26,642 nt of DNA from assembly GCA_046542505.1 (NCBI GenBank), contig JBKHBH010000024.1, forward strand, positions 1-26,642. Direction: 5' to 3'. The notes under the pieces were generated by a model that searched no databases, had not been told where the DNA came from, and saw nothing but the letters and a program-made list of their open reading frames with translations. The DNA is from Thermovirgaceae bacterium. Lineage in GTDB: Bacteria; Synergistota; Synergistia; Synergistales; Thermovirgaceae. A program made the translations under genes and the position numbers. Below, one piece after another: positions 1,148 to 21,203 of the stretch. Positions within the stretch are counted from its first letter, which is position 1. Each line of letters starts with the position of its first letter.

Positions 1148-1183
1148 CCCCGCCCCAACCATATGGTGGGGGCGGGGGTTTTT
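1148..1183 (+). terminator. Intrinsic terminator between convergent ompA-like gene and glgB
   Basis: CCCCGCCCC (1148-1156) pairs with GGGGCGGGG (1169-1177), enclosing the palindrome ACCATATGGT, followed by TTTTT (1179-1183). Confidence 0.8.
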
Positions 1184-6460: not shown

Positions 6461-8460
6461 TACATGAAGTAGTCGAAATCTTCCTCGCGGCGCATACGTC
6501 GGTGAATACGGAAAATCTTCGCAGGCAGGACCGCCGGATCGAAACCCACGGCATTTGTACCCCCCTGCCAGACAAATTTTTCATCACCAAGCAGGTCGTG
6601 GAGGAGATAGGACTGGTTAGAATCGATGCCGAGTTTCTCAAGAGGCAGATTAACATGGCAACTTTGATGCGTGAAGGGATCAAGGCTGACACCTATGAGG
6701 AGGAGGTCGTTTCCCTCGGTATTTTCCTTGAGATAAAAGAGAATGTTCTCATTGTCGGTGTCAAGGAATTTCAGGTTCCGTGTACTCTGCAACGCCGGAT
6801 TATCTTTGCGGATGGTGTTCACTCGAGAAATGAAATCCTTCAAATTCCCGGGTTGATCCCAGTTCCAGTCGCGTATCTCGTATTTTTCGGAAGCATGATA
6901 CTCTTCGCGGCCTGGTAATGCGTCAAATACGAGCAATTCAAAAGGAGGTCCATAGATACCGTAGCATGAAGAAAGGGTCGCTGCGAGCACAAGCCGTATG
7001 ACAAAAGCGGGACGGCCGCCGATTTGTAGAAATTCGGGAAGAATATCGGGGGTATTGGGCCAGAAATTCGGTTGAAAGTACTCGACGAGTTCGGTTTGCG
7101 TCAGTTCGACGAGATAATCCCGCATCTCCCGGGCGCTGTTTCTCCAGGTGAAATAGGTGTAAGACTGGGTGAAGCCTTCCCGCGCAAGGCGTCGCATGAC
7201 TTTAGGCCTGGTGAAGGCTTCGGCGAGAAAGATGACGTCCCTGTCACGTTTTTTGGCTTCCGCGATAAGCCAGTTCCAGAAACGAAATGGCTTCGTATGC
7301 GGATTGTCTACGCGGAAAATCCGTATGCCCTGGTCCATCCAGAAAAAGGTCACTTTTTTCAGTTCTTGCCAAAGATCTTTCCAATCCGGTGTTTCAAAAT
7401 TGAAGGGAACCACGTCCTGGTATTTTTTCGGAGGGTTTTCGGCATACTGGATGCTGCCGTCGGGTCTCCACCTGAACCACTCAGGATGGGAAGCAATATA
7501 GGGATGATCCCGAGAGCACTGGAAAGCGAGATCCATGGCAACTTCCATGCCCAGATCACCAGCTGTTTTGACGAAATCCCTGAAATCCTCGAGTGTGCCG
7601 AGATCCGGGTGGATGGTTTTGTGTCCTCCTTCGGAGGCCCCGATAGCCCAGGGGCATCCAGGGTCTTCAGGCCCTGCGGGAAGGGTGTTGTCCGGTCCCT
7701 TGCGATCGGTCGTACCTATGGGATGAACGGGAGGGACGTAAACGACATCGAACCCCATCCTGGCGATTTCTGGAAGACGTTCACAGGCGTCTTTCAGGGT
7801 ACCGCCCATTCTCCCGTTGCATGTCGAACGGGGGAAAAATTCGTACCAACTGCTGAAACGGGCTTTAGAAGGCACCACATCGACTTCAAGAGGCGCAGAA
7901 GGTTGCGTCACGGTGGAGCCTTCATCGGAGTTTCTGGTCATCAGGTCCTTGAGGCGTTTTTCTTCGAGAATCGGCGGTATCCTCTCGAGCTCCAAAGCGC
8001 CGGCTAATCTTTCCATATAGGTGAGAAGCTCCCGACGGTCGGCGCCAGTGGCCGTTGCAAGGTTTTTTTCGATTTCAGTACAGATCTGGTCGCGGTCAAC
8101 GGTGGTGGCCTCGCCGGCGGAAAGTTTTTTCAAGAAATCCTTCGAGAGTGTGGCAAACCTGTCGACGGTGCCACGGACCGCATATCTGTGGCGTTTCATG
8201 CCTGTAATTGTAAAACAGGCATTCCAGCGATCATTTCCGATATGGGTCATGGGATATTCCTGCCACTGAAGGGGAGTTTCATGTGTTCCCCTGTAGACGA
8301 GGAGAGTGGCTCGTATCTCATCATGCCCGTCGGCGAAGACATCCGCTTCGACAGACACGGTTTCTCCCGGGATCCTGCGGATCGGAAAGCGTCCATCGTC
8401 GATGGACGGAGTTATCTTTTCTATAACGACTCTAATTGTTCCTTCCTGCATATGCGTCAC
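6460..8460 (-). CDS. glgE: Alpha-1,4-glucan:maltose-1-phosphate maltosyltransferase; alternative start ATG at 8451
   Basis: ADVFADGHD, SWYEFFPRS, GFDVVYVPPVHPIG, YAENPPKKYQD, catalytic FRVDNPHTKP / AEAFT / NTPDIL, QSYTYFTWRN, SEKYEIR. Confidence 0.96.
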   Translation of the reverse strand: MTHMQEGTIRVVIEKITPSIDDGRFPIRRIPGETVSVEADVFADGHDEIRATLLVYRGTHETPLQWQEYPMTHIGNDRWNACFTITGMKRHRYAVRGTVDRFATLSKDFLKKLSAGEATTVDRDQICTEIEKNLATATGADRRELLTYMERLAGALELERIPPILEEKRLKDLMTRNSDEGSTVTQPSAPLEVDVVPSKARFSSWYEFFPRSTCNGRMGGTLKDACERLPEIARMGFDVVYVPPVHPIGTTDRKGPDNTLPAGPEDPGCPWAIGASEGGHKTIHPDLGTLEDFRDFVKTAGDLGMEVAMDLAFQCSRDHPYIASHPEWFRWRPDGSIQYAENPPKKYQDVVPFNFETPDWKDLWQELKKVTFFWMDQGIRIFRVDNPHTKPFRFWNWLIAEAKKRDRDVIFLAEAFTRPKVMRRLAREGFTQSYTYFTWRNSAREMRDYLVELTQTELVEYFQPNFWPNTPDILPEFLQIGGRPAFVIRLVLAATLSSCYGIYGPPFELLVFDALPGREEYHASEKYEIRDWNWDQPGNLKDFISRVNTIRKDNPALQSTRNLKFLDTDNENILFYLKENTEGNDLLLIGVSLDPFTHQSCHVNLPLEKLGIDSNQSYLLHDLLGDEKFVWQGGTNAVGFDPAVLPAKIFRIHRRMRREEDFDYFM

Positions 8461-9107
8461 CCGCTTTTTGAGGTAGGTCGTATCATTTTATGATAAAGCA
8501 GTGAAGAGGAAACGCAAGAGTCTGTATTTCCTCCGCAGCTTTTCCCTTTTGTGTTTTGCCGGGATTTTGACTCCGGTACGGGGGCATTTTCAAAAGACCG
8601 GCGTGCTTCCTCGGTCATGAGAACAATGAGAAGTTGCCCCTGTGCATGGTCACCTGTGTTGTCCCGTTTCAGTGCAAGATAGGCCGGGCCATGCGAACCG
8701 GGCTGGGCCGAGACAAAAAGGGCAAAGGAATCCTCTTTAAAGAGGAGATTATACCTTGAGTGCTTCTTTTCGATTTCCTGCAGCAGGGAGCTCATGGAAA
8801 TCTTTGAAGAATCGATCAACAGTTCAATAGCATGTATGAGATTCGTGTCAAGAGTAAGGAGCCTGATTGTTTCGAGACCCTCCGGACCGTCAAAATTCCT
8901 GCAGGCATATGTCCCGGGTCGGGCATTTTCCACGAGATCACCGCAGCGGACATGATCAAGGCGAGCATGCAGGCTGATTCCGCCTTTTTCAATGAAATCC
9001 AGCAGGCAACCGGTGGTATTTTCGCCGGACATATTCCGTATTGAATAAACACCGATGACCATAAGCAAGACAATCAGTAGAATCGGGATAAATCCTCTGC
9101 GTCTCAT
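8457..9107 (-). CDS. Hypothetical exported or membrane-anchored protein
   Basis: 216 aa ORF with a basic N-terminus and hydrophobic helix (MRRRGFIPILLIVLLMVIGVY). GTGA overlap with glgE. No family recognised. Confidence 0.6.
   Translation of the reverse strand: MRRRGFIPILLIVLLMVIGVYSIRNMSGENTTGCLLDFIEKGGISLHARLDHVRCGDLVENARPGTYACRNFDGPEGLETIRLLTLDTNLIHAIELLIDSSKISMSSLLQEIEKKHSRYNLLFKEDSFALFVSAQPGSHGPAYLALKRDNTGDHAQGQLLIVLMTEEARRSFENAPVPESKSRQNTKGKSCGGNTDSCVSSSLLYHKMIRPTSKSG
8481..8517 (-). promoter_or_regulatory. Putative internal promoter for glgE-treS-glgB with an overlapping palindrome
   Basis: Minus strand TTGCGT (8517-8512), N16, TATCAT (8495-8490). Palindrome TATCAT-N3-ATGATA at 8481-8495. 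Confidence 0.35.
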
Positions 9108-9249
9108 GGTATTCTGTTTTCAGGCCTTTCCTGATAGGATAAAAACGGCATACAAACTGGAATTTCTACGAATACACTAACAGAATCGAGACTTTTGAAA
9201 AGCGGGAACTCAAAGCGTCACGGCACAAAACAGGAGAAGGCATCCGTTG

Positions 9250-9741
9250 ATGACAGGAAACATCTCCTCCAGAGCATGGTCCTTTTTTGCATTTCTCGGA
9301 TTGAGTCTCGGTGTCGGTGCGACCGGTTCGCTGGTAACGGCAGGGTCCGTCAAAACGTGGTACCCGATGCTTGTTAAACCTGCCTGGACGCCTCCTTCTT
9401 TTGTTTTCGCCCCGGTCTGGACGGTGCTTTATGTCTGCATGGCCGTTGCCGCATGGAGAGTCTGGGTAAAGAGAGAAAAGAGCGATGCCAAGGCCAATGG
9501 CCCGTTGTTTTTGTACTTTATTCAGCTTGCGCTCAATTTTCTCTGGTCGATTCTTTTTTTCGGCCTTCGCGCCCCGATTTATGCCGGCGTGGAGATCCTC
9601 CTTCTTTTGAGCGCCGTCAGTCTGACTTTTCTGTCATTCAGAAAAATTGATGCCGTTGCGGGCTGGCTGATGGTTCCATATGTGTTCTGGGTTGCCTATG
9701 CCTCGACACTGAATATAGCCATCGTGTTTTTGAACCGCTGA
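9250..9741 (+). CDS. tspO: TspO/MBR tryptophan-rich sensory protein (TTG at 9247 is an alternative start)
   Basis: WYPMLVKPAWTPPSFVFAPVWTVLY, QLALNFLWSILFFG, LMVPYVFWVAYASTLN. Five hydrophobic segments; GGAGAAGG RBS. Confidence 0.95.
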   Translation: MTGNISSRAWSFFAFLGLSLGVGATGSLVTAGSVKTWYPMLVKPAWTPPSFVFAPVWTVLYVCMAVAAWRVWVKREKSDAKANGPLFLYFIQLALNFLWSILFFGLRAPIYAGVEILLLLSAVSLTFLSFRKIDAVAGWLMVPYVFWVAYASTLNIAIVFLNR

Positions 9742-9804
9742 ACGAGGAAGTACCCGAACACCCAAAATACAGGTACCAGGTGTTTCGGTGTCGGGGTGAT
9801 GCTG

Positions 9805-9810
9805 TATAAT
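9805..9810 (+). promoter_or_regulatory. Putative -10 element upstream of the MOSC/mbh genes
   Basis: Perfect TATAAT 35 nt before the MOSC start. No convincing -35. Confidence 0.4.
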
Positions 9811-9845
9811 GTATATTCGGATTTTCCAAAAAAAAGAGGTGCGAC

Positions 9846-10280
9846 ATGGCGATTCTGTTGTCAGTCTGCAGGAGCGACAGGAAAGAAGATCCCAAGAAAC
9901 CCGAAAAAATAGCGAATATAGATCATGATAGAGGAGTCCGTGGAGATTCCCACTATGGCTTTGGATTTCGCCAGATAAGCCTGTTGCGTCAGGAGGATGT
10001 GGAAGAAGCGGCGCAAAAAGCCGGTTTCCCCTTTCCGTACGGAAGCCTCGCGGAAAACCTTCGCATAGAAGGAGTGCCTGAAGAAAAGCTCCAGCCCGGG
10101 AAACGGCTTAGTATCGGAGAGACAGTTGTTCTTGAGGTGGTGGAAAAAGGGAAGAAGCCGGAAGAGCCCCATTCATATGACTATCGGGGATGGTGCCTTC
10201 TTCCTAAGGTCGGATATTTTTTGCGGGTTCTTTCCGGTGGCCGGATTTCTCCAGGCGATGAGATCGTGCCGGAAGAATGA
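9846..10280 (+). CDS. MOSC-domain protein (short, divergent)
   Basis: GVRGDSHYG, RQISLL, GSLAENL, PGKRLSIGETVVLEV, GYFLRVLSGGRISPGD. RBS GAGGTG. Confidence 0.8.
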   Translation: MAILLSVCRSDRKEDPKKPEKIANIDHDRGVRGDSHYGFGFRQISLLRQEDVEEAAQKAGFPFPYGSLAENLRIEGVPEEKLQPGKRLSIGETVVLEVVEKGKKPEEPHSYDYRGWCLLPKVGYFLRVLSGGRISPGDEIVPEE

Positions 10281-10364
10281 TTCCTGAAGAAGAAAGGGGA
10301 ACATGGGAATGCGCTTGCCTGGTGGGCGAAAATCTTTTGAAAATGAAAGAGGGAGGTGAGGCGC

Positions 10365-10862
10365 GTGGTCATATTTTTTCTTTCAGCCGCGACGTATCTG
10401 CTTCTGGCATGGAGCGGCGGCGGTATAGACCCGGCTGAAATCGTCATTGCCATCGTCCTTGGGGGAATACTCGCCATCGCTGCCCGGTCTTGGAATCCAG
10501 GGAGATCGTGGACGCTGGCGGGCTTGAACCCGGTTCGATGGATTTCGTTTATCGTGTACCTTTTTGGTCCGTTCTTATTAGGTATGATCAAGGCGAATCT
10601 TGATGTTGCAATGCGGGTCATCACCGGAGAAATACGTCCCGGCATCGTTCGTATTGATTCCGGACTCAAAAAGAGCATGTCATCGACGATGCTGGCGAAT
10701 TCGATCACGTTGACGCCAGGGACACTGACGGTTGATGTGGATGATGGCCCCGAAAAAGGAAACCTTTTCTACATTCACTGGATATTTGTAACGGATGAAA
10801 ATCCCGGTGAAGAAGAGGTATACGGTTCCTTTGGGAAATGGGCGAGGAGGGTAGCCGAATGA
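10365..10862 (+). CDS. mbhA: Membrane-bound hydrogenase subunit A (MrpE/MnhE-like)
   Basis: KANLDVA, IRPGIV, MLANSITLTPGTLTVD, FYIHW. Start re-placed at GTG 10365 after GGAGGTG (10352-10358). Confidence 0.88.
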   Translation: MVIFFLSAATYLLLAWSGGGIDPAEIVIAIVLGGILAIAARSWNPGRSWTLAGLNPVRWISFIVYLFGPFLLGMIKANLDVAMRVITGEIRPGIVRIDSGLKKSMSSTMLANSITLTPGTLTVDVDDGPEKGNLFYIHWIFVTDENPGEEEVYGSFGKWARRVAE

Positions 10863-11119
10863 TTCCGACTTTCTTTGCCTGGGGTGCCGCGGTTCTGGCG
10901 CTGTGCGCCCTGGTGATGACGGGACGTCTCATTTCCGGACCGACGATCCCCGACAGGGTTGTTGCCCTTGATTCAATCAATACTCTGGTAGTTGCGATGA
11001 TGGTCCTGCTTGCCGTTGTCTCCGATTCGGTGGTCATGGTGGACGTCGCCATTGTCTATGCTGCGCTGGCCTTCGTCGGCACCCTGTTCATCGCACGTTT
11101 TATCGAAGGCGGGGTGTAG
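10859..11119 (+). CDS. mbhB: Membrane-bound hydrogenase subunit B (MrpF-like)
   Basis: GPTIPDRVVALD, VDVAIVYAALAFVGT. ATGA overlap with mbhA and GGAGG RBS fix the start at 10859. Confidence 0.9.
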   Translation: MIPTFFAWGAAVLALCALVMTGRLISGPTIPDRVVALDSINTLVVAMMVLLAVVSDSVVMVDVAIVYAALAFVGTLFIARFIEGGV

Positions 11120-11122
11120 GCG

Positions 11123-11494
11123 ATGACAGTATTGATCGTCCTCTTTCTGGTCATAGGCGTTTTGTTCAATGTCCTGGGCACCGTTGCTCTCTACCGGTTC
11201 CCGGATGTCTTCACCCGACTTCACGGAACGACGAAATGCACGACTTTCGGTTCGATTTTTACGTCGAGCGCCGTCATTCTGTACGGTGTACAGAAATTGC
11301 TTGTCACTGGAGAAGGTCGTTTTGTGGCACTGATGGTTCATGTAGCCATCGCGATTCTCGCACTGCTTGTCACGAACCCGACCGGAGCCCATGCGATAGC
11401 AAGGGCGGCGCACAGGAGCGGAGTCCTGCCTAAATTTGCGGTGGTTGACAGACTTGCCGAAGACGAAAAGAAAAAAGGTGGTGTCTCGGCATGA
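11123..11494 (+). CDS. mbhC: Membrane-bound hydrogenase subunit C (MrpG-like)
   Basis: RFPDVFTRLHGTTKCTTFG, TNPTGAHAIARAA. Confidence 0.9.
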   Translation: MTVLIVLFLVIGVLFNVLGTVALYRFPDVFTRLHGTTKCTTFGSIFTSSAVILYGVQKLLVTGEGRFVALMVHVAIAILALLVTNPTGAHAIARAAHRSGVLPKFAVVDRLAEDEKKKGGVSA

Positions 11495-11751
11495 ACAGCT
11501 TGGTTCATATCGCGGTACTTACCGCAATTGTCATCGCGGGTTTTTTTGCCATCTGGTTCAGGGATTTGCTTTCATCAGTGATTTCCCTTGCGGTGTTCAG
11601 CCTGCTTTTGTCACTGGAATTCTACATCCTTCAGGCTCCCGATGTTGCAATTGCCGAAGCCGGAATTGGTGCAGGCCTTACGACGGCTATCTACATCATC
11701 GCGCTCAGAGGATGCAACGTGCTCCGCAAGGGCGGAGGTGGGCGCAAATGA
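11491..11751 (+). CDS. mbhD: Membrane-bound hydrogenase subunit D (MrpA C-terminal / DUF4040-like)
   Basis: LQAPDVAIAEAGIGAGLTT, three hydrophobic helices, ATGA overlap with mbhC. Confidence 0.88.
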   Translation: MNSLVHIAVLTAIVIAGFFAIWFRDLLSSVISLAVFSLLLSLEFYILQAPDVAIAEAGIGAGLTTAIYIIALRGCNVLRKGGGGRK

Positions 11752-12020
11752 AAAAGAACGTGCTGTTTCTGATTGCGCTGCTTGTGGTTACAGGGACGAT
11801 GTGGGGAGCCCTTAGCGGCATTCACCCTTTTGGTGACGCCGGGAAAGCTCCCATGGACGATTACTATATCGAAAACGCCCAACAGGAACGAAACGTGAAC
11901 AACATCGTCACATCCGTCGTGTTCGATTACAGGGGCTTTGACACCCTTGGAGAGGCGGCGGTTCTTTTCACCGCTGTCTGTTCCGTGCTCGTTGTTTTCA
12001 GGAAGGGAGGGCAAGACTGA
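11748..12020 (+). CDS. mbhE: Membrane-bound hydrogenase subunit E
   Basis: NIVTSVVFDYRGFDTLGEAAVLF. True start ATG 11748 (ATGA overlap, GGAGGTG RBS) lies within the longer track ORF 11436..12020. Confidence 0.88.
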   Translation: MKKNVLFLIALLVVTGTMWGALSGIHPFGDAGKAPMDDYYIENAQQERNVNNIVTSVVFDYRGFDTLGEAAVLFTAVCSVLVVFRKGGQD

Positions 12021-12514
12021 TGCAACCTCTCTCTCTTGTTGTCAGAACAATTTGCGACATTTTCGCCTGGTTTTTGGCCATATTCGGTGCATACATAATA
12101 ATCCACGGCCATCTCTCGCCGGGTGGCGGCTTCCAGGGTGGTGCAGTAGTTGCGACTTTCATTGCCCTTCTTCTCGTTTCGCACGGAGGAAAGAAACTGC
12201 TTTCCTTTGTGAAACCGGGTCTTTATTCCTGGGTTGAAACGGCAGGACTGCTTCTTTTCATCGGAACGGGATTCGCAGGACTGACAACAGCCTTTCTCTA
12301 CAATTTTCTTGCCGGCAAGGGCGGGCTCTTCGGGGCAGCTGTACAGGCCGGTGCCAATCCGGGGGTCTTGAACAGCTCTGGAACGATTGCTCTCATGAAT
12401 ATGGCGGTGGGCCTCGAGGTTATCGGCGGCCTTTCGCTGATTGTCATGTACATGTTCAAGGGAATCCGTCTCTATGAAGAGGCAGGAAGCGAGGAGACCG
12501 GCCATGACAGGTAA
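12020..12514 (+). CDS. mbhF: Membrane-bound hydrogenase subunit F (MrpB-like)
   Basis: HGHLSPGGGFQGG, SGTIALMNMAVGLEV. TGATG overlap with mbhE. Confidence 0.9.
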   Translation: MQPLSLVVRTICDIFAWFLAIFGAYIIIHGHLSPGGGFQGGAVVATFIALLLVSHGGKKLLSFVKPGLYSWVETAGLLLFIGTGFAGLTTAFLYNFLAGKGGLFGAAVQAGANPGVLNSSGTIALMNMAVGLEVIGGLSLIVMYMFKGIRLYEEAGSEETGHDR

Positions 12515-12851
12515 TACGCCTTTTCTCGTCGTAGGAATTCTTTTCTTCCTGGGCCTCTATGCGATCCTTTTTGAAAGGAACCTCATCAAGATCGCAATCG
12601 GGATCACGATGCTGGAGGCTTCGGCAAACCTGCTTCTCATCGTGTTGGGGTACAGGACCGGTGGCAGCATACCAGTGTTTACCCTTGCAGGAGAAGTGAA
12701 GACAATGACGCTTCCAACGCCCCAGGCATTGACGCTGACCGCCATCGTCATCGGACTGGCGACTTCGGCATTGCTTTTGTCGCTGATCATGATGCTCTAC
12801 AAGCATTATGGAACCCTTGACGTGCGGGAGATCAGGAGGTTGCGAGGATGA
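12504..12851 (+). CDS. mbhG: Membrane-bound hydrogenase subunit G (MrpC/NuoK-like)
   Basis: RNLIKIAIG, PQALTLTAIVIG, YGTLD. Start ATG 12504 after GAGGAG. Confidence 0.9.
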   Translation: MTGNTPFLVVGILFFLGLYAILFERNLIKIAIGITMLEASANLLLIVLGYRTGGSIPVFTLAGEVKTMTLPTPQALTLTAIVIGLATSALLLSLIMMLYKHYGTLDVREIRRLRG

Positions 12852-14413
12852 ACTGGAATATACATCTCCCGATTCTGGTAATCGCGGTCCCGCTGTTGGG
12901 CGCCTTTGCGGCTCCCGTCGCAGGTCTTGGAGGCAAGACGACAAGGAATATCTGGTTCATAGCGATTTCGGTTTTGACCACTGCATTGAGCATCATGCTT
13001 TTGCAGCATGTCCAGGCGGAAGGCCTTGCCGTCTATGTCCTTGGCGGCGAATCCTGGGACCTGACCTTGCCGTCGGGCTTGAGCTGGCCCATCAGAATCA
13101 TTCTTGAAGTAGATGCTTTCAGCGCATTCATGGCGGTTGTCGGATCCATAGCGGCCCTGGCAGGTGCTTTCTTTTCATTGCGCTTCATGGAGCGTTTCTC
13201 GGGGCTGGATAAGTTCGTTTCCCTGTATTTCCTGCTCACGGCGGGAATGATGGGAATGGAGCTGACGGGCGACCTGTTCAACTTTTTCGTGTTCCTGGAG
13301 ATTGCTTCGGTGGCCTCCTTCGGACTTGTCGCCTTCTGGCGGGACAGGCCGGAGGCGATTGAAGCCGGTTTCAAATATATGGTCGTTTCTACTGTGGCGG
13401 CCATGTTGGTGCTTCTTGCCGTCGGTTTTTTCTACGGACGCTACAACGCTGTAAACATGGCGGCAGTGGCGAGAATGATGCATTTCGGCTATCCGGAAAA
13501 AATCGCTCTCGTGTTTTTGGTGGTGGCCCTGGCTATGAAGTGTGGAACAGTGCCCATGCACATGTGGACACCTGACGCCTACACCGAGGCCCCGGCAGGA
13601 GTAACCTGCCTCCTCGTGGCAGTGAGCCAGGCCTCGCTTTACGGTCTTTTTCGGGTTTGTTTCTCTCTTTACGGCGCCAGCCTCGGGAGTACGGTGGTCC
13701 CGTGGACAATAATCGTACTGGGCGTCCTCTCAATGTTCATCGGGGTAACCATGGCTGTCATTCAGAAAGAAATTAAACGCCTGATGGCGTACCATTCGGT
13801 TTCGCAGATCGGCTACATTCTGCTTGGACTCGGGGTTGGCCTGCTTGCGCTGCGTGATCCACAGGCTATGGCGGATTATGGTTTCACGGCCATGAAGGGC
13901 GGAATTTACCATCTTTTCAACTACACGATGTACAAGGGACTGCTCTTTTTGACTGCGGGGGCACTGTATTACGCCGCAGGAACCAGAAACCTCAACGAAC
14001 TTGGCGGGCTCGCAAGAAACATGCCGCATACGGCATTCATGTTCGTCATAGCGGCGGCGGCGATTGCCGGACTGCCGCCTTTCAACGGGTTTGTATCGAA
14101 ACTCCTCATTTACGAATCCACTTTTGCCGTTTACCCGATTCTCGCGATAGCCGCTCTGGTTACGTCGGTGCTGACTCTTGCTTCTTTCGTTAAAGTTTTC
14201 CAGACGGCCTTTTTGGGACCTGAGAAATCGGTCTTTGCGAACGTGAAGGAAGTTCCGGCAACGATGCTTGTCGGCATGTCGATATTGACCGTCGTGGTCA
14301 TCGGACTGACGTTGCTCCCGACATGGTCACTGGCGAACCTCATCGAACCTGCCGCGAAAGCCCTGGTCGATCAGGCCGGTTACATTTCGGCCGTCATGGG
14401 AGGTGGGCTGTAA
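12848..14413 (+). CDS. mbhH: Membrane-bound hydrogenase subunit H (MrpD/NuoN antiporter-like)
   Basis: TGDLFNFFVFLE, KCGTVPMHMWTPDAY, KRLMAYHSVSQIGY, KGLLFL, GLPPFNGFVSK. 521 aa polytopic membrane protein. Confidence 0.92.
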   Translation: MNWNIHLPILVIAVPLLGAFAAPVAGLGGKTTRNIWFIAISVLTTALSIMLLQHVQAEGLAVYVLGGESWDLTLPSGLSWPIRIILEVDAFSAFMAVVGSIAALAGAFFSLRFMERFSGLDKFVSLYFLLTAGMMGMELTGDLFNFFVFLEIASVASFGLVAFWRDRPEAIEAGFKYMVVSTVAAMLVLLAVGFFYGRYNAVNMAAVARMMHFGYPEKIALVFLVVALAMKCGTVPMHMWTPDAYTEAPAGVTCLLVAVSQASLYGLFRVCFSLYGASLGSTVVPWTIIVLGVLSMFIGVTMAVIQKEIKRLMAYHSVSQIGYILLGLGVGLLALRDPQAMADYGFTAMKGGIYHLFNYTMYKGLLFLTAGALYYAAGTRNLNELGGLARNMPHTAFMFVIAAAAIAGLPPFNGFVSKLLIYESTFAVYPILAIAALVTSVLTLASFVKVFQTAFLGPEKSVFANVKEVPATMLVGMSILTVVVIGLTLLPTWSLANLIEPAAKALVDQAGYISAVMGGGL

Positions 14414-14751
14414 TGTGGAGCAAGGTATACACCGGGTTCGGCTACTGGGATGTCTACACCTGGCTGATCTTCTTTGCCATTGCTGCGGCGCTTGTTCTCT
14501 GGCTCCGCAGCCTCGGGAGAAAGGATTACAAGGAAGGCACCGAACAGGACGAGATCTTTTACGGCAGTAATGTCGTGCCGGAAGAAGGCTCCGAGATCCA
14601 GGTGCCGGCCAGTTCAGCCTACTGGGGTTTTACGGAGGCCCTGAAGGGCTATTATGAAATTCTTGTCGAGATGCACAGCGGCGATACGAGAGAATACGTC
14701 GGATACATGGTACTGACAGCCTCGGTACTCGCCGTCCTGGTGCTTTTGTAA
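14413..14751 (+). CDS. mbhI: Membrane-bound hydrogenase subunit I
   Basis: FGYWD start, TM helix, loop, YWGF...MHSGDTREYV, second TM helix. Sits between mbhH and mbhJ; TAATG overlap. Confidence 0.8.
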   Translation: MWSKVYTGFGYWDVYTWLIFFAIAAALVLWLRSLGRKDYKEGTEQDEIFYGSNVVPEEGSEIQVPASSAYWGFTEALKGYYEILVEMHSGDTREYVGYMVLTASVLAVLVLL

Positions 14752-14764
14752 AGGGGGGACGGCC

Positions 14765-15226
14765 ATGAAACTTGACCGGTATCTGGATATTCTTACGAAA
14801 TCCATCTGGGTGTTTCATTGCAACAGCGGATCTTGTAACGGGTGCGACATAGAAATCGTTGCGACCATCACTCCCCGGTATGATATTGAGCGGTTCGGGA
14901 TGAAACTTGTAGGAACGCCCAGACATGCCGATGCCCTGCTTGTTACGGGGCCGGTGACAAAATACATGACAGAAAGACTCAAGAGGATCTATGCGCAGAT
15001 TCCCGATCCGAAGGTTGTCATCGCCATAGGAAATTGCGCGAATTCAGGGGATGTCTTTTACAAATCCTATAATCTCGATGGCCCTGTGGACAATGTGATC
15101 CCTGTCGATGTATATGTCCATGGATGCCCGCCCCGACCGGAGGCAATCATCGAGGGTGCGGCCAAAGCGGTCCTCAAGCTTGAAAAAATGAAAGAGGAGC
15201 TTCAAAAGGCAGGTGTGCCGCAATGA
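14765..15226 (+). CDS. mbhJ: [NiFe]-hydrogenase small subunit (NuoB-like)
   Basis: GSCNGCDIE, PRHAD, GNCANSG, PVDVYVHGCPPRPE. Confidence 0.93.
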   Translation: MKLDRYLDILTKSIWVFHCNSGSCNGCDIEIVATITPRYDIERFGMKLVGTPRHADALLVTGPVTKYMTERLKRIYAQIPDPKVVIAIGNCANSGDVFYKSYNLDGPVDNVIPVDVYVHGCPPRPEAIIEGAAKAVLKLEKMKEELQKAGVPQ

Positions 15227-15771
15227 CATGCCGTCCTGAATATGTCAAGGAAAGCAGCGACCCGAAAGAAGTGATCAAATGCATCGAAGAGCGGTTCGGC
15301 GAAGATGCGCAAAACCTCGAATTGAGAGAATACCGGGGTGGTCTCGAGGATGCAGTACAGTACCATCTGCTCTGGCTCAAGATCACCAGAGAGCGCTTTC
15401 TGGAACTTGTCGACGTCTTTCGGGAATTCGATTTTTTGCATTTCCAGATTATGTCCGGTAACGATGATGGAGACGTGGTGACGCTGAACTATCACCTCGC
15501 GCTTTTCAGAGAAGCCGGAAAAGGGAAACGACTTGGAATAAGCATTTCCGTTGAAGTACCCAAGACCGATCCCGTCATGCCGTCACTCTGGGAAAGGATT
15601 CCGGGTGTCGAGTACAGCGAAAGGGAAATGCGCGAGATGTTGGGAATTGATTTCGACGGACTTCCCAACAAGGCTCTGGTCTTTCTCCCCGAGGACTGGA
15701 ACGAGGACATCAAGCCCTGGCGAAGGGATGAAACCGGACCGTCCGAAGCGGACGTCCGGGAATTGTCATAG
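15223..15771 (+). CDS. mbhK: Membrane-bound hydrogenase subunit K (NuoC-like)
   Basis: EREMREMLGIDFDG, FLPEDW, PWR. ATGA overlap with mbhJ. Confidence 0.9.
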   Translation: MTCRPEYVKESSDPKEVIKCIEERFGEDAQNLELREYRGGLEDAVQYHLLWLKITRERFLELVDVFREFDFLHFQIMSGNDDGDVVTLNYHLALFREAGKGKRLGISISVEVPKTDPVMPSLWERIPGVEYSEREMREMLGIDFDGLPNKALVFLPEDWNEDIKPWRRDETGPSEADVRELS

Positions 15772-15782
15772 GAGGTGCCGAT

Positions 15783-17021
15783 ATGGCTGTAGGAGCTGGA
15801 AAGACCTATAAAGTCCCCATCGGCCCTGTGCACGTAGGACTGAAGGAACCCATTACCGCCTGGCTCGATGTTGACGGGGAACGCATCGTCGACGCGACGA
15901 TCAGACCGGGGGCCATTCACAGGGGCATCGAGTTCATGGCGAGAGAACGAAACCCCATACAGGTGATTTACCTTGCCGAGAGAATTTGCGGCATTTGCTC
16001 TTTCGCTCACATCGAGTGCTTTGTCCGGGCCGTGGAAGACGCAACAGGGATAACAGTCCCGAAGCGGGCACAGTATATACGGACCATTATCCTCGAGCTG
16101 GAGCGTATCCATTCACACGTTCTTTGGGCGGGAGTTGCCTGCTACACCTTCGGGTATGATTCCGCCTTTCACCTTGGAATGATCCTCCGGGAAAAAGTGA
16201 TGGATGTTCTTGAAGCCCTTACGGGGAACAGGGTGAACTACGGGACCGGGACGATAGGCGGCGTCAGGCGTGACATTACTCCGAAAGTCGAAAAGGTCCT
16301 GAGGGACATGATCGCTTTCTACAAGAATGAATTCGACCTTTTCTACAACGTGGCCACCGATGATCCCATCACCATGGCACGCATGAGAAACGTGGGCGTG
16401 CTTGCGCCCGAGGATGCGGTGAAATACTGCGCTCTTGGTCCGACTGTCCGGGGAAGCGGCCACCGGGTCGACCTCCGGTGGTCACAGCCGTATGAAGCTT
16501 ACGGGGATCTCAATGTGCAGCCTGTAGTGCCCCAGGATCTGACAGGGGAAGTTTACGGTGATGTATACGACCGGTTTCTCGTTCGTGTGCTTGAGGTCTA
16601 TCAGTCCCTCGAAATTATAGAGACGTGTCTTGACGGTCTCCCGGAAGGGGATCTCATGTGGGAAACCAATCTGCCGAAACTGCTGAATTTCCTGAAAAAG
16701 GCAAATGGCACAGGGATTTCCTCCATAGAAGCCCCGCGTGGGGATGATACTCATGTGATAAAGCTTACAGGCGGGGAAGAAAATGTGACATGGTGGAAAG
16801 TGCGGGCACCGACGTACTCGAATGCCGTATCCTGGCCGATCATGTTCAGGAACAACGAACTGGCTGACGCCCCGCTTATCATTAACAGTGTCGACCCTTG
16901 CATCTCCTGCATGGAGCGAATGCTCGTCACCGAACAGAAAACGGGATCGAAACAGATCGTTACCCGCGCAGAGCTTCTGAATCGATGCAGAGAAAAAACA
17001 AGGAAGGTGATGGGGGCATGA
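15783..17021 (+). CDS. mbhL: Group 4 [NiFe]-hydrogenase catalytic subunit
   Basis: GPVHVGLKEP, HRGIE, L1 motif RICGIC (C69/C72), EAPRG, VRAPTY, L2 motif DPCISCMER (C373/C376). 33 aa extension after R379. Confidence 0.95.
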   Translation: MAVGAGKTYKVPIGPVHVGLKEPITAWLDVDGERIVDATIRPGAIHRGIEFMARERNPIQVIYLAERICGICSFAHIECFVRAVEDATGITVPKRAQYIRTIILELERIHSHVLWAGVACYTFGYDSAFHLGMILREKVMDVLEALTGNRVNYGTGTIGGVRRDITPKVEKVLRDMIAFYKNEFDLFYNVATDDPITMARMRNVGVLAPEDAVKYCALGPTVRGSGHRVDLRWSQPYEAYGDLNVQPVVPQDLTGEVYGDVYDRFLVRVLEVYQSLEIIETCLDGLPEGDLMWETNLPKLLNFLKKANGTGISSIEAPRGDDTHVIKLTGGEENVTWWKVRAPTYSNAVSWPIMFRNNELADAPLIINSVDPCISCMERMLVTEQKTGSKQIVTRAELLNRCREKTRKVMGA

Positions 17022-18007
17022 TGATTCTCTTCAAGATATTGGCGGGACTGGCGCTTCTGATTTTCGCCTCGCTCCTGTCACTGCTTTTTGAGGGGATCGA
17101 CAGGATTTTTCATGCGAGAATGCAGTCCCGGATGGGTCCGCCGCTGTTCCAGCCTTTCTACGACGTGCTGAAACTGCTTGGGAAAGAAAACATCGTCCCG
17201 CGCAGAGCGATCCCATGGGCTTTCAACGGAGCTCCCTGGGTGGCTGCCACGACGGCGCTTATGATAGTCCTGTATATTCCGATGGGATCCCTGCAACCGA
17301 TACTCGGAGGCCATGGGGACCTGATCCTGATTCTTTACCTGCTTGGACTGTCCGCGGTAGCAATGGCTGTAGGAGGCTTTTCGAGCGGTTCTGTTTACGC
17401 CAACGTGGGTGCTCAAAGAGAAATGGTGCTCATGATGAGCTATGAACTTCCTCTTGCCGCGGTCATCGTATCCCTCGCGTGGTTCGCCTACAGGTCGGGA
17501 ATGCCAGGGGACCCGTTCAGTCTGGAAACCTATGTCAGCATGTCCGTATGGAGCGTTGCGGGATGGACGGGAATTTTCGGGATTCTGGGGCTGCTTGCGG
17601 CACTGTTGGCCGTTGTCCCGGCTGAAACAGGGAAGGTGCCGATGGATATCGCCGAGGCGAAAACGGAAATTCTGGAAGGGCTGATCTGCGAATATTCAGG
17701 CCGGAACCTCGCAATGTTCAAAGTCGCCTTTTCCCTGAGGACCCTTGCCATGTGCGCCGTAGTTGTGTCGCTCTTTTTCCCGTGGTCCTTGGGACGACTG
17801 TTAGGGCTCGACGGCGTGCTCTTTTTTGTCGCTGATTTCATTTTCTTCTGGGCAAAGGTGCTGGTCGTACAGGTATTGGGTGTGACCATTATCAGGACCA
17901 CCTTCGGCCGATTCAAGATCTGGCAGGCGTCGAGACTGTACTGGTATCAGATCGGCGGGCTCGCCGCAGCTGGTATGGTCCTTTTGACCCTTGATGTAAT
18001 CCTGTAA
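17018..18007 (+). CDS. mbhM: Membrane-bound hydrogenase subunit M (NuoH-like)
   Basis: ARMQSRMGPP..QPFYDVLKLLGKE, MSYE, PMDIAEAKTEILEGLICEYSG. Start ATG 17018 (ATGA overlap) or 17021. Confidence 0.92.
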   Translation: MMILFKILAGLALLIFASLLSLLFEGIDRIFHARMQSRMGPPLFQPFYDVLKLLGKENIVPRRAIPWAFNGAPWVAATTALMIVLYIPMGSLQPILGGHGDLILILYLLGLSAVAMAVGGFSSGSVYANVGAQREMVLMMSYELPLAAVIVSLAWFAYRSGMPGDPFSLETYVSMSVWSVAGWTGIFGILGLLAALLAVVPAETGKVPMDIAEAKTEILEGLICEYSGRNLAMFKVAFSLRTLAMCAVVVSLFFPWSLGRLLGLDGVLFFVADFIFFWAKVLVVQVLGVTIIRTTFGRFKIWQASRLYWYQIGGLAAAGMVLLTLDVIL

Positions 18008-18019
18008 GGTGGTGTCGAG

Positions 18020-18682
18020 ATGCTGAATAAAATGCTCATCCAGATTTTGAAGCAGGGAAGCAAAAAGCCATCGACCAACCCCTTTCCTGTAGCTCATATG
18101 CCGGATAGCCTTCAGGAGGCTCTGGCTGCTGCGGAGGAAGGAGCTATTGAACTCCATCCTCCTGTCGAAATCCCGGAGAATTTCAGAGGAAGGATCGCCT
18201 ACGACAAGAATGCCTGTATCGGCTGCAAAATGTGCATCAGGGTGTGCCCGGCACATGCCATAACGTCCCTCGACGAGGAAAAGAAGGTCGAATTCCACAT
18301 GGACAGATGCTGTTTTTGTGCTCAGTGTACGGAAATCTGTCCCGTCAAATGCATCTGGATGACAGAGGAATTTGCTTTTGCCTCCTACGAGAGGAAAGCG
18401 GAAATCGTCAGCGATTCCGGGAAAAAACCTGAACCGCCGAAAGATGACTCCGGACCGAAAGCGGAAGAAAGCCAGGACGACAAAGCTGCAAAGCAGAATA
18501 AAAGTACATATGAAATCGATCCCGACAAGTGCATCGGTTGCACCAAATGTGCTCAGGTCTGCCCTGTAAATGCCATATCGGGCAAGGTCAAGGAGACACA
18601 CGCCATCGACGAAGAGACCTGCATTGGGTGCGGAGCCTGCGCGCAAGCCTGTCCTGTTCAGGCTATTCACCCGAAGGGTTAG
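18020..18682 (+). CDS. mbhN: Hydrogenase Fe-S subunit N (NuoI-like) fused to an extra C-terminal 2x[4Fe-4S] ferredoxin domain
   Basis: TNPFP...FRGRI, CIGCKMCIRVCP, CCFCAQCTEICP, charged linker, then CIGCTKCAQVCP and CIGCGACAQACP. Confidence 0.9.
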   Translation: MLNKMLIQILKQGSKKPSTNPFPVAHMPDSLQEALAAAEEGAIELHPPVEIPENFRGRIAYDKNACIGCKMCIRVCPAHAITSLDEEKKVEFHMDRCCFCAQCTEICPVKCIWMTEEFAFASYERKAEIVSDSGKKPEPPKDDSGPKAEESQDDKAAKQNKSTYEIDPDKCIGCTKCAQVCPVNAISGKVKETHAIDEETCIGCGACAQACPVQAIHPKG

Positions 18683-18704
18683 ACAACACGGAGGCATAAC
18701 TGAA

Positions 18705-18737
18705 GGGGCCGGCGGTATCGTCGGCCCTCTCCTTTTT
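18705..18737 (+). terminator. Intrinsic terminator at the end of the mbh operon
   Basis: GGGCCGGCG (18706-18714), GTAT loop, CGTCGGCCC (18719-18727, one G-U pair), then CTCC and TTTTT. Confidence 0.7.
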
Positions 18738-18751
18738 GGGAGGTCGAAAGG

Positions 18752-19813
18752 ATGAAGCAGGTTTCGGTTCTCCTCACAGGAGGGACGATCGCAAGCGGTT
18801 TCGGACTGTCCGGCAAGGAGCCGAAAGAGAAGGCTGCTTCAAGGCTCAAGGATTATCTAAGTGATTTTTTTGACGATAAGGGAGCCGCCGTCCTTTTCAG
18901 GGAACCCTGGGGTACACCTGGGCTTGACAGTTCTAACCTCGATCCGGGGCACTGGTACGAGATGGCGAAGATTATCGCCGAAGATTTGTCCGGTGGCAGC
19001 AGCGGTTTTCTTGTTCTCCACGGCACGGATACCATGGCATATACGGCAGCCTGGCTGGCCCTTTGCTTTTGGGGAGCGGGGGTACCGGTCATCCTGACCG
19101 GAAGTCAGCTGACGCTGGATTACACGCCTGATGACGTAACAGTCAATATAAGAGGCGCGGCACAGGCGCTGTGTTCAAAAATCTCGGGTGTCTGGGTCTA
19201 CTGCAACTGGAAACTGATACAGGGTGTGAGAGTACACAAGGCAAGGGCCAGCCATCCTGATGCGTTTGTTCCTGTCAACAGCGTACCGCTCTTTTTCAAT
19301 CCTGAATGGGCGCAAGGGGGTGGAAACAAGCACACGGAATTTCCAGGCAAGGCACATGTAGAAAAGGTCAGTGAAAGCCTGCGGACGCTTCTTTCTCTGA
19401 ACCCTGAAACACTGAGGGAGCGTGCATCACGGGCGAGATGGCTTTTCTGTGCACCGGGGAGCGCCCCCTATGCCGGGAAAGGTGAGCGGATACTCTTGCT
19501 TTTTGGTTTCGGAGCGGGGAATGTGCCGGCTTCTGTGCTCGAAAATATACGTATGCTTTACAAAGCAAATGTAAAACCGGTGATCATTGCCTGCAGCCAG
19601 GCAGAGGGGGATGTGAAGGATCCTTCGTCGTACAGCGGGGTAGGAGCAGCATTACTGGCTCAAGATGGCTTTGAGGTTTACAGTCAGATGGATTATCCTT
19701 TTGAGTTCATACACGCATTGAGTGTTTTTGCCCTTGCCGTTGACTACGAAAACCCCGGGAAAGTCCTGGCGAAATTCCTAAAACTCTACGGAAGTTCCGA
19801 CAACAGGAAATGA
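18752..19813 (+). CDS. ansA: L-asparaginase, type I (cytoplasmic) family
   Basis: TGGTIA, LDSSNL, HGTDTMAYTA, ILTGSQ, RVHK...DAF, GFGAGNVP. No signal peptide; GGAGG RBS. Confidence 0.85.
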   Translation: MKQVSVLLTGGTIASGFGLSGKEPKEKAASRLKDYLSDFFDDKGAAVLFREPWGTPGLDSSNLDPGHWYEMAKIIAEDLSGGSSGFLVLHGTDTMAYTAAWLALCFWGAGVPVILTGSQLTLDYTPDDVTVNIRGAAQALCSKISGVWVYCNWKLIQGVRVHKARASHPDAFVPVNSVPLFFNPEWAQGGGNKHTEFPGKAHVEKVSESLRTLLSLNPETLRERASRARWLFCAPGSAPYAGKGERILLLFGFGAGNVPASVLENIRMLYKANVKPVIIACSQAEGDVKDPSSYSGVGAALLAQDGFEVYSQMDYPFEFIHALSVFALAVDYENPGKVLAKFLKLYGSSDNRK

Positions 19814-19843
19814 CCAGCGCGGTTCAGACAGCAAGACAGGTTC

Positions 19844-19871
19844 GGGGCCCCGCTCAAAGGAGGCCCCTTTT
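19844..19871 (+). terminator. Intrinsic terminator between convergent asparaginase gene and gltX
   Basis: GGGGCC (19844-19849) pairs with GGCCCC (19862-19867), followed by TTTT. Confidence 0.6.
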
Positions 19872-19889
19872 CGATTGTTCTCCCGATTT

Positions 19890-21203
19890 TCAGAGGAGAT
19901 TGTAATGTTTCAGCCTCCTTGACGTTTCAGCTTTCCCGAGGACCGAAGCGACTTCGAAAATTCCGGGACTGACTTTTGTTCCGGTAAGAGCCATCCGGAA
20001 AGGCATGGCCACATCTTTCATTTTGAGCCCCTTTTCCTTGCTCCATTCTTTTGCGAAAGCAACCATTTCGTGAGGATCCCAGGCGTCTATTTCGACAAGA
20101 TGTGAGAAAAACTCGCGAAGCAGGGCCTTCTGGGTTTTTGACAGATCCGAAGCGTCGTATCTGTCTTTCACGACGTCGAAGGAAAGGAAATAATCGCTGT
20201 AGGCTGCGACTTCCCGCAATGTCCTGCCGCGTCCCTGGAGAAGCTCGAGACTTTCGGCAAGAAAGGAATCTTCGTGTTCTGCCGGATTTAATCCCATCTC
20301 TTGCCAGAAGGGTTTGACGAGTTCCACCCTTTTTTGCGGGGCCAGGTTGGTAATATGCACCTGGTTAACGGCGTCAAGCTTTTCCATGTCAAAAACGGCG
20401 GCACGTTTGGTGACACGGCTGAGGTCAAAAAGCTCTACAGCTTCATTCCGGCTGAAGATTTCCCTGTCGTCTCCCGGCGACCAGCCCAAAAGAGCAAAAT
20501 AGTTGAATAGGCCTTCCGGAAGATATCCCATGTTCTTGTACTCGTAGACACTTGTGGCACCATGTCGTTTTGACAGCTTTTTCTTGTCCTTTCCCAGAAT
20601 CATTGGGAGGTGCGCAAAGTGCGGAAGTCTCCACTCGAGTGATTCGTAGAGCAAAACCTGTTTCGGCGTGTTCGAGATGTGGTCTTCCCCCCTGATGACG
20701 CAGGTTATGTCCATCAGGTAGTCGTCTACGACGACGGCGAAATTGTAAGTGGGGGAGCCGTCGCTCTTGATGAGGACCGTATCCTTGAGGGTGTCGCTTT
20801 CCATCGTGATTTTGCCATAGACGATGTCCTCGAAAACAATGGTTTTCCCTTTCGGGATGGAGTAGATGATTGCGTCGCCTTCTTTGTAGGCGAGACCCTT
20901 GTCGAGCAACCGGTTCGCGGTTTCATGATATAGGTCCGTTCTCTCCGATTGACGATAAGGTCCCTTCGGTCCGCCTGCTGCCGGTCCTTCATCCCAGTCG
21001 AGGCCTAGCCATTTCAGCCCTTTCATGATGGTTTCTTCGAATTCTCTCGTAGATCTGGCCCTGTCGGTGTCTTCTATTCTCAGAACGAACGCCCCGTTGT
21101 TTTTTCGCGCCCAGAGCCAGTTGAACAAGGCGGTATGAGCTCCTCCAATATGTAATGCTCCTGTCGGACTCGGGGCGAACCGGACCCGGACATTCTCGTT
21201 CAT
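19890..21203 (-). CDS. gltX: Glutamate--tRNA ligase (start ATG 21203; GTG 21212 is an alternative)
   Basis: RVRFAPSPTG, HIGG, LRIEDTD, YRQSER, PTYNFA.VVDD, IRGEDH, KLSKR, LLGWS, and a C-terminal anticodon-binding domain (RMALTG...SP). Confidence 0.96.
   Translation of the reverse strand: MNENVRVRFAPSPTGALHIGGAHTALFNWLWARKNNGAFVLRIEDTDRARSTREFEETIMKGLKWLGLDWDEGPAAGGPKGPYRQSERTDLYHETANRLLDKGLAYKEGDAIIYSIPKGKTIVFEDIVYGKITMESDTLKDTVLIKSDGSPTYNFAVVVDDYLMDITCVIRGEDHISNTPKQVLLYESLEWRLPHFAHLPMILGKDKKKLSKRHGATSVYEYKNMGYLPEGLFNYFALLGWSPGDDREIFSRNEAVELFDLSRVTKRAAVFDMEKLDAVNQVHITNLAPQKRVELVKPFWQEMGLNPAEHEDSFLAESLELLQGRGRTLREVAAYSDYFLSFDVVKDRYDASDLSKTQKALLREFFSHLVEIDAWDPHEMVAFAKEWSKEKGLKMKDVAMPFRMALTGTKVSPGIFEVASVLGKAETSRRLKHYNLL

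Follow-up and report, generated by a model that had tools for sequence, protein, structure and literature searches.

A HydB-like ferredoxin domain tethered to the MbhN subunit of a membrane-bound [NiFe] hydrogenase in Synergistota

The last gene of the mbh operon in a 26,642-nucleotide stretch of DNA from a Thermovirgaceae bacterium (phylum Synergistota; contig JBKHBH010000024.1 of assembly GCA_046542505.1; called the window in what follows) encodes a fusion protein. Its N-terminal part is an MbhN/NuoI-type subunit of a [NiFe] hydrogenase bound to the membrane (Mbh), and a low-complexity linker connects this part to a second ferredoxin-like domain with the motifs for two further [4Fe-4S] clusters. 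Judged by sequence comparison, the fusion is widespread across Synergistota and not peculiar to this window. The best-supported relatives of the added domain are the C-termini of HydB/NuoF-type proteins. We give even chances to a role of this domain as an accessory electron-entry module on a flexible leash, which would deliver cytoplasmic electrons to the distal cluster of the hydrogenase.

Anatomy of the MbhN-ferredoxin gene

The gene and its parts are as follows:

18020..18682, forward strand: MbhN-ferredoxin fusion gene, 220 amino acids (aa) plus stop, one uninterrupted open reading frame
18020..18421, forward strand: NuoI/MbhN-type core, residues 1-134, defined by PRK08348, 6cfw_N and invariant columns, with the invariant D132-x-G134 as its C-terminal boundary
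18215..18250, forward strand: cluster motif 1, CIGCKMCIRVCP, residues 66-77
18308..18343, forward strand: cluster motif 2, CCFCAQCTEICP, residues 97-108
18422..18508, forward strand: low-complexity tether rich in K, D, S, P and E, residues 135-163, with unconserved sequence and a predicted local distance difference test score (pLDDT) <50 at 145-159
18509..18679, forward strand: C-terminal 2x[4Fe-4S] ferredoxin-like domain of the HydB/RnfB type, residues 164-220, with Fer4_21 at 165-216 and a pLDDT of 90-95
18530..18565, forward strand: cluster motif 3, CIGCTKCAQVCP, residues 171-182
18620..18655, forward strand: cluster motif 4, CIGCGACAQACP, residues 201-212

A first-pass annotation, made from the DNA letters, had claimed four CxxCxxCxxxCP motifs for this protein, two of them in the NuoI-like core. 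Indeed, residues 66, 97, 171 and 201 each begin a CxxCxxCxxxC motif, with a proline behind it in all four cases. Pfam placed Fer4 on four stretches of the protein (E 8e-30) and gave two dicluster domains as well; only Fer4-type families were detected, and the body of a NuoF-type flavoprotein is absent. The NCBIfam model PRK08348 (NuoI-like) covers residues 4-130 with 152.7 bits (cut-off 124). Residues ~150-217 match dicluster models of the RnfB, HgcB, PorD and FdxA types, and the C-terminal domain reaches 79.2 bits with FdxA_fam NF058577, the cut-off of which is 65. This domain comprises ~55 aa with two CxxCxxCxxxCP motifs and is in frame with the core, so it is not free-standing. Between the two parts, residues 131-163 consist of seven K, five S, five D, four P, three E, three A, two G, two Q, one N and one T, with no Cys, His or Met, which agrees with the earlier description of a Pro/Lys/Asp/Glu-rich segment without stop or methionine.

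The mbh operon and the identity of the host complex

The fusion gene closes an operon of the Mbh type. The relevant features are:

10356..18682, forward strand: mbh operon of 13 co-directional genes, assigned by Pfam
15783..17021, forward strand: MbhL, the [NiFe] large subunit (Pfam Complex1_49kDa and NiFeSe_Hases)
18705..18738, forward strand: terminator-like hairpin with 10 pairs, 8 of them G-C, and a T-rich tail, located 23 nt past the stop codon

The first eight genes encode MnhE-, MrpF-, MnhG-, MbhE-like (D/E), MnhB-, NuoK- and NuoL-like proteins and a protein of 142 aa. They are followed by genes for NuoB (MbhJ), NuoC (MbhK), the NuoD/[NiFe] large subunit (MbhL), NuoH (MbhM) and, as the last one, the MbhN-ferredoxin fusion. 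In Pyrococcus, mbhA-N have the same order. Every operon gene gave a Pfam match except the one encoding the 142-aa protein (14323-14751), which stands at the position of MbhI. MbhL has kept both cysteine pairs, in RICGICSFAH at the N-terminus and DPCISCMER at the C-terminus, and the solved structure closest to it is chain L of MBH (6cfw_L, E 2e-105). Likewise, the MbhN core matches 6cfw_N (E 4e-24) better than the best NdhI match 7eu3_I (1.8e-15) or 7z0s_F, the HycF chain of formate hydrogenlyase (3e-14), and 6cfw_N is also its top match in Foldseek. By these family and structure matches, the fusion protein is the MbhN/NuoI-type subunit of an Mrp-linked membrane-bound [NiFe] hydrogenase, as originally assigned, and the host complex is a predicted ferredoxin-dependent, ion-pumping hydrogenase. 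The hairpin behind the gene is the sole such site in 18500-20000; shuffled sequences average 1.7 of them, so it is weak evidence for a terminator by itself.

Two gene models of the operon deserve comment. The 194-aa open reading frame at 11436-12020 (forward strand) has an MbhE family match that is confined to residues 138-189. This frame may combine MbhD and MbhE in one gene, and the operon would then count 13 genes instead of 14. The listed MbhM frame (16898-18007, forward strand) has a TTG start and overlaps MbhL by 124 nt, and its NADHdh match begins at residue 51; an internal 'MMILFKIL' suggests that the true start lies near 17018.

Distribution of the fusion

We surveyed the architecture of MbhN in two collections. 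The first comprises 5.8 billion protein clusters and yielded 870 matches at E <= 0.001. Among the best 120 of these 870, four motifs were found in 72 clusters, six in 1, three in 3 and two in 44. The source names include Synergistaceae, Thermovirga, Aminobacterium and similar ones, and the relatives carry product names such as '4Fe-4S binding protein', 'formate hydrogenlyase subunit 6' and 'RnfB'. In a 50%-identity clustering of 1.84 billion representatives, the fused form appeared in only three representatives. A search aimed at longer fused forms (>385 aa) gave no close relative, the best being 32% identical.

The second collection consists of contigs from one genome per species, of which we analyzed the best 80 of 448 stretches encoding relatives. 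The fused form with four motifs is present in 47 of these 80 loci and, as a variant with three strict motifs that we counted as fused, in L035; 30 loci encode a complete two-motif protein, and two are truncated at contig ends. All fused loci belong to Synergistota-type records except L004, which has no lineage in its title and nests among them. Acetomicrobium hydrogeniformans, Pyramidobacter piscolens and Thermovirga-type organisms are among the carriers of the fusion. The 30 two-motif loci come from Synergistota (21), Atribacterota (8) and Thermoplasmata (1), so that none of the 9 loci outside Synergistota within the best 80 of 448 has the fused form. MbhM lies immediately 5' of MbhN and MbhN ends the operon in all 80 loci. 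The colinear operon is entire wherever the DNA suffices; MbhA is included in 56 of the 80, the others being cut by contig ends. The first-pass annotation had considered that a four-cluster form might already be described and widespread among group 4 hydrogenases. It is indeed widespread in Synergistota, so this objection holds in part. However, the 9 loci examined outside the phylum lack it, and we found no description of an MbhN-ferredoxin fusion in the full-text literature searched, which excluded subscription journals.

The same surveys bear on the possibility that the fusion is an assembly or annotation artefact, with two genes joined by a sequencing error. The linker contains no stop, the fusion recurs in frame in 47 species-level genomes (independent assemblies) and in 72 protein clusters, and insertions and deletions in the linker keep the frame. 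Moreover, a split form was found at none of the 30 short-form loci. We found no point in favor of an artefact and regard this explanation as refuted. We also rejected the idea that short forms have their ferredoxin as a separate downstream gene, which was found at 0 of 30 loci. A similar ferredoxin-like stretch was seen 8.4 kb away in L077, and one lies 540 nt away on the opposite strand in L078.

Predicted structure, conservation and the tether

For the conservation analysis we used 27 diverse fused forms with 49-88% identity to the window protein, and AlphaFold2 was run on the same alignment. The pLDDT is 88-96 for residues 61-110, 87 for 131-140, 44-49 for 141-160 and 90-95 for 161-220. The predicted template modelling score (pTM) of 0.43 corresponds to two confident domains whose mutual placement is without confidence. 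Together with the Pfam matches, this model bears out both the additional 2x[4Fe-4S] domain and the disordered linker before it. The extent of the linker had to be revised. Its low-complexity composition is as claimed, but since D132 and G134 at the end of the core are invariant in the 27 fused forms and residues 131-140 are modelled with fair confidence, the tether must be shorter than the proposed 33 aa, and the truly disordered part is predicted to comprise about residues 137-160.

All 16 cysteines are invariant across the 27 forms and, in the added domain, so are G188, H194, I196 and D197. Because of this invariance we consider the added domain, on the evidence of conservation, to be functional and not junk. 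The linker behaves differently. In the 72 fused forms of the cluster survey its length has a median of 20 aa, with extremes of 13 and 95 aa; K, E, V, A, G and P abound in it, its sequence is unconserved, and it cannot be aligned. The net charge of the added domain is -3 in the window and 0.08 on average in the 72 forms (range -3 to +4).

Further C-terminal extensions were observed in some lineages. An E/K/P/S-rich tail of 39-117 aa follows the ferredoxin domain in P0039, P0046, P0049-P0053 and P0056-P0062. Many of these tails have a K/R-rich end, and that of P0039 ends in a long K/N/G run; such a tail might bind the membrane or an acidic partner. A protein of 325 aa (P0064) has six motifs, with a third dicluster domain on a second linker.

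Relatives of the added domain

The best match of the added domain to a single stretch of a solved structure is the C-terminus of HydB from T. kivui (8a6t_B, residues 567-628 of 630, 63.6 bits). Foldseek aligned the same chain over 57 columns with 60% identity and a root-mean-square deviation of 0.9 A. In all nine metagenomic proteins of the NuoF/HydB type that we compared (588-625 aa), the match to the domain lies at the very C-terminal end and covers 55-56 residues at 62.5-74.5% identity. Three of them bear the name NuoF or NADH-binding subunit F in their source records; the remaining six were assigned by their Pfam accessions. The short free ferredoxins that we found (n = 4; 5 candidates scored in a word-indexed search, with a best hit of 63%) share 54-65% identity over 48-54 residues, and modules of RnfB, HdrA, FwdF and MvhB also match. 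The proposed resemblance to the C-terminal domain of HydB/NuoF-type subunits was thus recovered at the level of both sequence and fold, and such C-termini are the best-supported nearest relatives, for a short domain (55 aa) and a shallow search of free ferredoxins.

In HydABC of T. maritima, this C-terminal domain moves between a 'bridge closed' and an 'open' state beside a Cys3His zinc site, and in the related enzyme of A. mobile the C-terminal clusters of HydB are discussed as its ferredoxin site (both from excerpts of PMC9499530).

Gain and loss of the domain

A maximum-likelihood tree was calculated from the core alone, with 79 rows (49 fused forms including the window, and 30 short forms; the two truncated loci were excluded). 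It contains 8 state changes, at least 3 of which are forced by starred branches, and none of 500 label shuffles gave a value as low. The short forms of Atribacterota and Thermoplasmata form one starred clade. Short forms are also nested in fused clades; for example, L058 and L059 lie within the L029-L035 group, and L043 and L052 group with L023 and L027. The tree is unrooted and by itself cannot separate gain from loss. Loss is, however, seen directly in remnants of the domain. In L043 (9442-9563), right after the stop codon, 25 aa at 60% and 17 aa at 76% identity to the domain are encoded out of frame, and in L052 (9453-9512) the same position holds an out-of-frame remnant of 20 aa at 70% identity. 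These remnants represent either domain loss in progress or assembly frameshifts. In L048 and L049, about 30 aa of the linker are retained and the domain is gone. These observations are best fitted by a single ancient gain in Synergistota with repeated loss afterwards, and because the added domain was lost repeatedly, it is accessory rather than essential.

Repeated loss, including the decaying remnants in L043 and L052, would also suit a vestigial or neutral appendage without a catalytic role. We consider this quite improbable, since the domain has eight cluster cysteines and four other residues that are invariant in 27 of 27 forms, right beside a freely drifting linker, and has been retained in 48 of the 69 complete MbhN genes of the Synergistota clade.

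Possible function of the tethered domain

Electron entry into Mbh-type respiratory hydrogenases is known in outline, and its canonical form is the collision of soluble ferredoxin at the distal cluster of MbhN. The peripheral arm of MBH, MBS, NDH and complex I contains three [4Fe-4S] clusters in a conserved chain, of which the distal and medial ones belong to the N/NuoI subunit (excerpt of PMC8165549). By analogy with the numbering of MbsN in this excerpt (PMC8165549), the ligands of the distal cluster would be C66, C69, C72 and C107 in the window protein.

An accessory electron-entry module on a flexible leash would work as follows. In the cytoplasm, the added domain would take up electrons, either from reduced ferredoxin or directly from the oxidoreductases that reduce ferredoxin in amino-acid fermentation. 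Docked at the distal cluster, which is exposed on the MbhN core, it would then hand these electrons over to the normal chain of three clusters that ends at the [NiFe] site. With a tether, the carrier would be locally more concentrated at the pump. Lineages could lose such a domain because it would merely speed a step that soluble ferredoxin can also perform. We are more doubtful about a stronger version, in which the pump of Synergistota uses its own leashed ferredoxin to take electrons straight from 2-oxoacid or aldehyde oxidoreductases, bypassing the soluble ferredoxin pool, and lineages without the domain have gone back to the diffusible carrier. The swinging-arm mechanism and the direct wiring to a particular donor, both suggested in the first-pass annotation, likewise stay conjectural.

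The alternative that we take most seriously, while giving it a clearly smaller chance than the leashed module, is a static extension of the electron wire. The domain would be docked permanently on the core and lengthen the chain from three to five clusters, creating a new outer face at which the ferredoxin or flavodoxin of the lineage would dock, and the linker would be a leftover of the fusion. The kinship of the domain to ferredoxin-interaction cluster domains within enzymes (HydB, RnfB, HdrA) speaks for this, as does its near-neutral charge, unlike that of soluble ferredoxins. In addition, extra Fe-S modules between NuoI-type subunits and their donors are common in relatives such as formate hydrogenlyase (FHL, 7z0s), where the partner of the NuoI-type subunit is HycB. 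A fixed position is harder to reconcile with a linker that varies without constraint between 13 and 95 aa, with tails of 40-117 aa past the domain in some lineages, with an AlphaFold2 model that shows no confident inter-domain packing, and with at least three losses of the domain that left the core not visibly remodelled. Because the linker length is free, the packing is unconfident, loss is repeated and the core was not remodelled, we favor a flexible and accessory domain over a fixed and integral one. These four observations fall short of proof, and the disorder predicted for the linker permits mobility but does no more.

Several points weigh against the flexible module. Permanent docking of the domain is just as compatible with all the sequence data, and movement, docking and electron transfer of the domain are proposals. 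The added domain is less acidic than the two soluble ferredoxins of the clostridial type that we found (net charges of -4 and -6) and therefore looks unlike a straightforward copy of such a carrier. Its likeness to HydB is confined to the 55-aa domain, and a closer free ferredoxin may exist, because only five free candidates were scored. Finally, we compared fused and short forms in five pairs of clades over 66 columns that are conserved among fused forms, and in these five comparisons found no patch of the core that relaxes after domain loss and hence no interface signal. The sole recurrent change is K70 (18227-18229, inside motif 1) to R in four of five comparisons. In the 49 fused forms this lysine is at least 85% conserved, and the fused sisters compared have kept it; the replacement is conservative and may be due to chance.

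It is also conceivable, though unlikely, that the domain is a dedicated coupling arm that plugs the hydrogenase into one partner complex, for example a Bfu/HydABC-type enzyme or a 2-oxoacid oxidoreductase, and so forms a supercomplex. Its closest relatives do sit in Bfu/HydB-type enzymes, and several Bfu enzymes occur in Synergistota (excerpt of PMC9304861). A linked partner gene is missing, however: MbhN closes the operon in each of the 80 loci, what lies behind it varies, and no gene for a ferredoxin-reducing oxidoreductase is present in the window, operon included.

Whichever way the domain works, a tethered variant that spans a phylum provides structural work with a built-in probe of the ferredoxin docking site, and sister lineages without the domain are natural knock-outs. 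The mobile cluster domain of HydB can evidently be reused outside bifurcating enzymes. The fusion is built of familiar parts, and is therefore useful rather than surprising.

Genomic neighbourhood

The genes flanking the operon in the window encode GlgB, TreS-Mak, GlgE, TspO, MOSC, GltX, PolA, SurA-like and radical-SAM proteins. A cluster for the GlgE pathway of alpha-glucan metabolism (1182-8460, reverse strand) and the frame next to it are composed as follows:

1182-3107, reverse strand: branching-enzyme-like gene
3107-6460, reverse strand: TreS-maltokinase fusion
6460-8460, reverse strand: GlgE
8457-9107: open reading frame of 216 aa without a Pfam match

TspO/MBR and MOSC-domain genes lie just 5' of the operon (9247-10280, forward strand); upstream TspO was found in 6 and upstream MOSC in 7 of the 80 related loci. 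Directly 3' of the operon, a gene of the asparaginase family is located at 18752-19813 (forward strand; Pfam Asparaginase N-terminal, E 8.5e-37). A homologue lies at most about 1.2 kb from the start of MbhN in 24 of the 80 loci and farther away in 2 more. In loci other than these 24, the gene downstream of MbhN varies.

Comparison with known systems

MbhN of Pyrococcus furiosus (6CFW, chain N) has the same NuoI-type fold with two CxxCxxCxxxCP motifs, and its gene likewise closes a colinear mbh operon. The alignment covers residues 47-159, and the charged C-terminal tail of the Pyrococcus protein aligns with the start of the linker in the window. In contrast to the window protein with its four clusters, the Pyrococcus protein has 139 aa, stops after the charged tail and contains two.

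The C-terminus of HydB/BfuB (8A6T, chain B; 7P5H, chain B) resembles the added domain closely in sequence and fold and holds the same C-terminal place in its subunit. The window protein, however, lacks the NuoF-type body that binds flavin mononucleotide and NADH, and the connection is a long tether predicted to be disordered. The Cys3His zinc (or [2Fe-2S]) hinge that excerpts of PMC9499530 describe for HydB is absent from the window linker, where such a site is impossible because the linker contains neither Cys nor His. By its domain matches, the fusion protein is therefore a member of the MbhN/NuoI family and not of the HydB family, yet it carries the terminal domain of HydB.

RnfB also shares the added domain, which scores 98.9 bits on positions 94-161 of TIGR01944 and matches residues 268-326 of 9eri_B. 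Unlike RnfB, the window protein has no N-terminal membrane anchor or Fe-S domain of the RnfB kind, and the host complex is another one.

Some group 4 hydrogenases have separate Fe-S connector subunits, namely HycB in FHL of E. coli, CooF, and the polyferredoxins of Eha/Ehb; the FHL structure 7Z0S turned up in both our sequence and our fold searches. These connectors resemble the added domain in placing extra [4Fe-4S] clusters between a NuoI-type subunit and the electron donor. They differ in being separate polypeptides with a dedicated dehydrogenase, whereas the domain in the window is tethered and the operon contains no dehydrogenase.

Additional modules have also been acquired by other NuoI-family proteins. 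Ten of them (P0125, P0133, P0137, P0138, P0143, P0148, P0158, P0173, P0185 and P0225) carry 6-12 CxxCxxCxxxC motifs on low-complexity A/P/E/K-rich linkers after a NuoI-like N-terminus, and P0212 was noted as a further NuoI-family protein with tandem CxxCxxCxxxC modules. In each of the four such proteins that were scanned (P0133, P0138, P0163 and P0231), the core exceeds the NCBIfam cut-off of a NuoI model or of PRK08348. A further round of family scans revealed generic di- and polyferredoxins. The tandem-module proteins differ from the window protein, to which they are at most 39% identical, in that their added modules resemble their own core by eye, which suggests internal duplication. In one protein of 563 aa (P0189), a NuoI-like core is joined in a single chain with an additional dicluster domain and with an FpoF/FrhB-like domain, an input module of the F420 type; its FpoF and FrhB matches are below the NCBIfam cut-offs. 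From the tandem-module proteins and P0189 we conclude that extension of the NuoI subunit is a recurrent theme, of which the fusion in Synergistota is one distinct instance, and this suggests a recurrent way of rewiring complex-I-like enzymes. Other NuoI-family proteins thus have extra ferredoxin modules independently of the MbhN-ferredoxin fusion in Synergistota.

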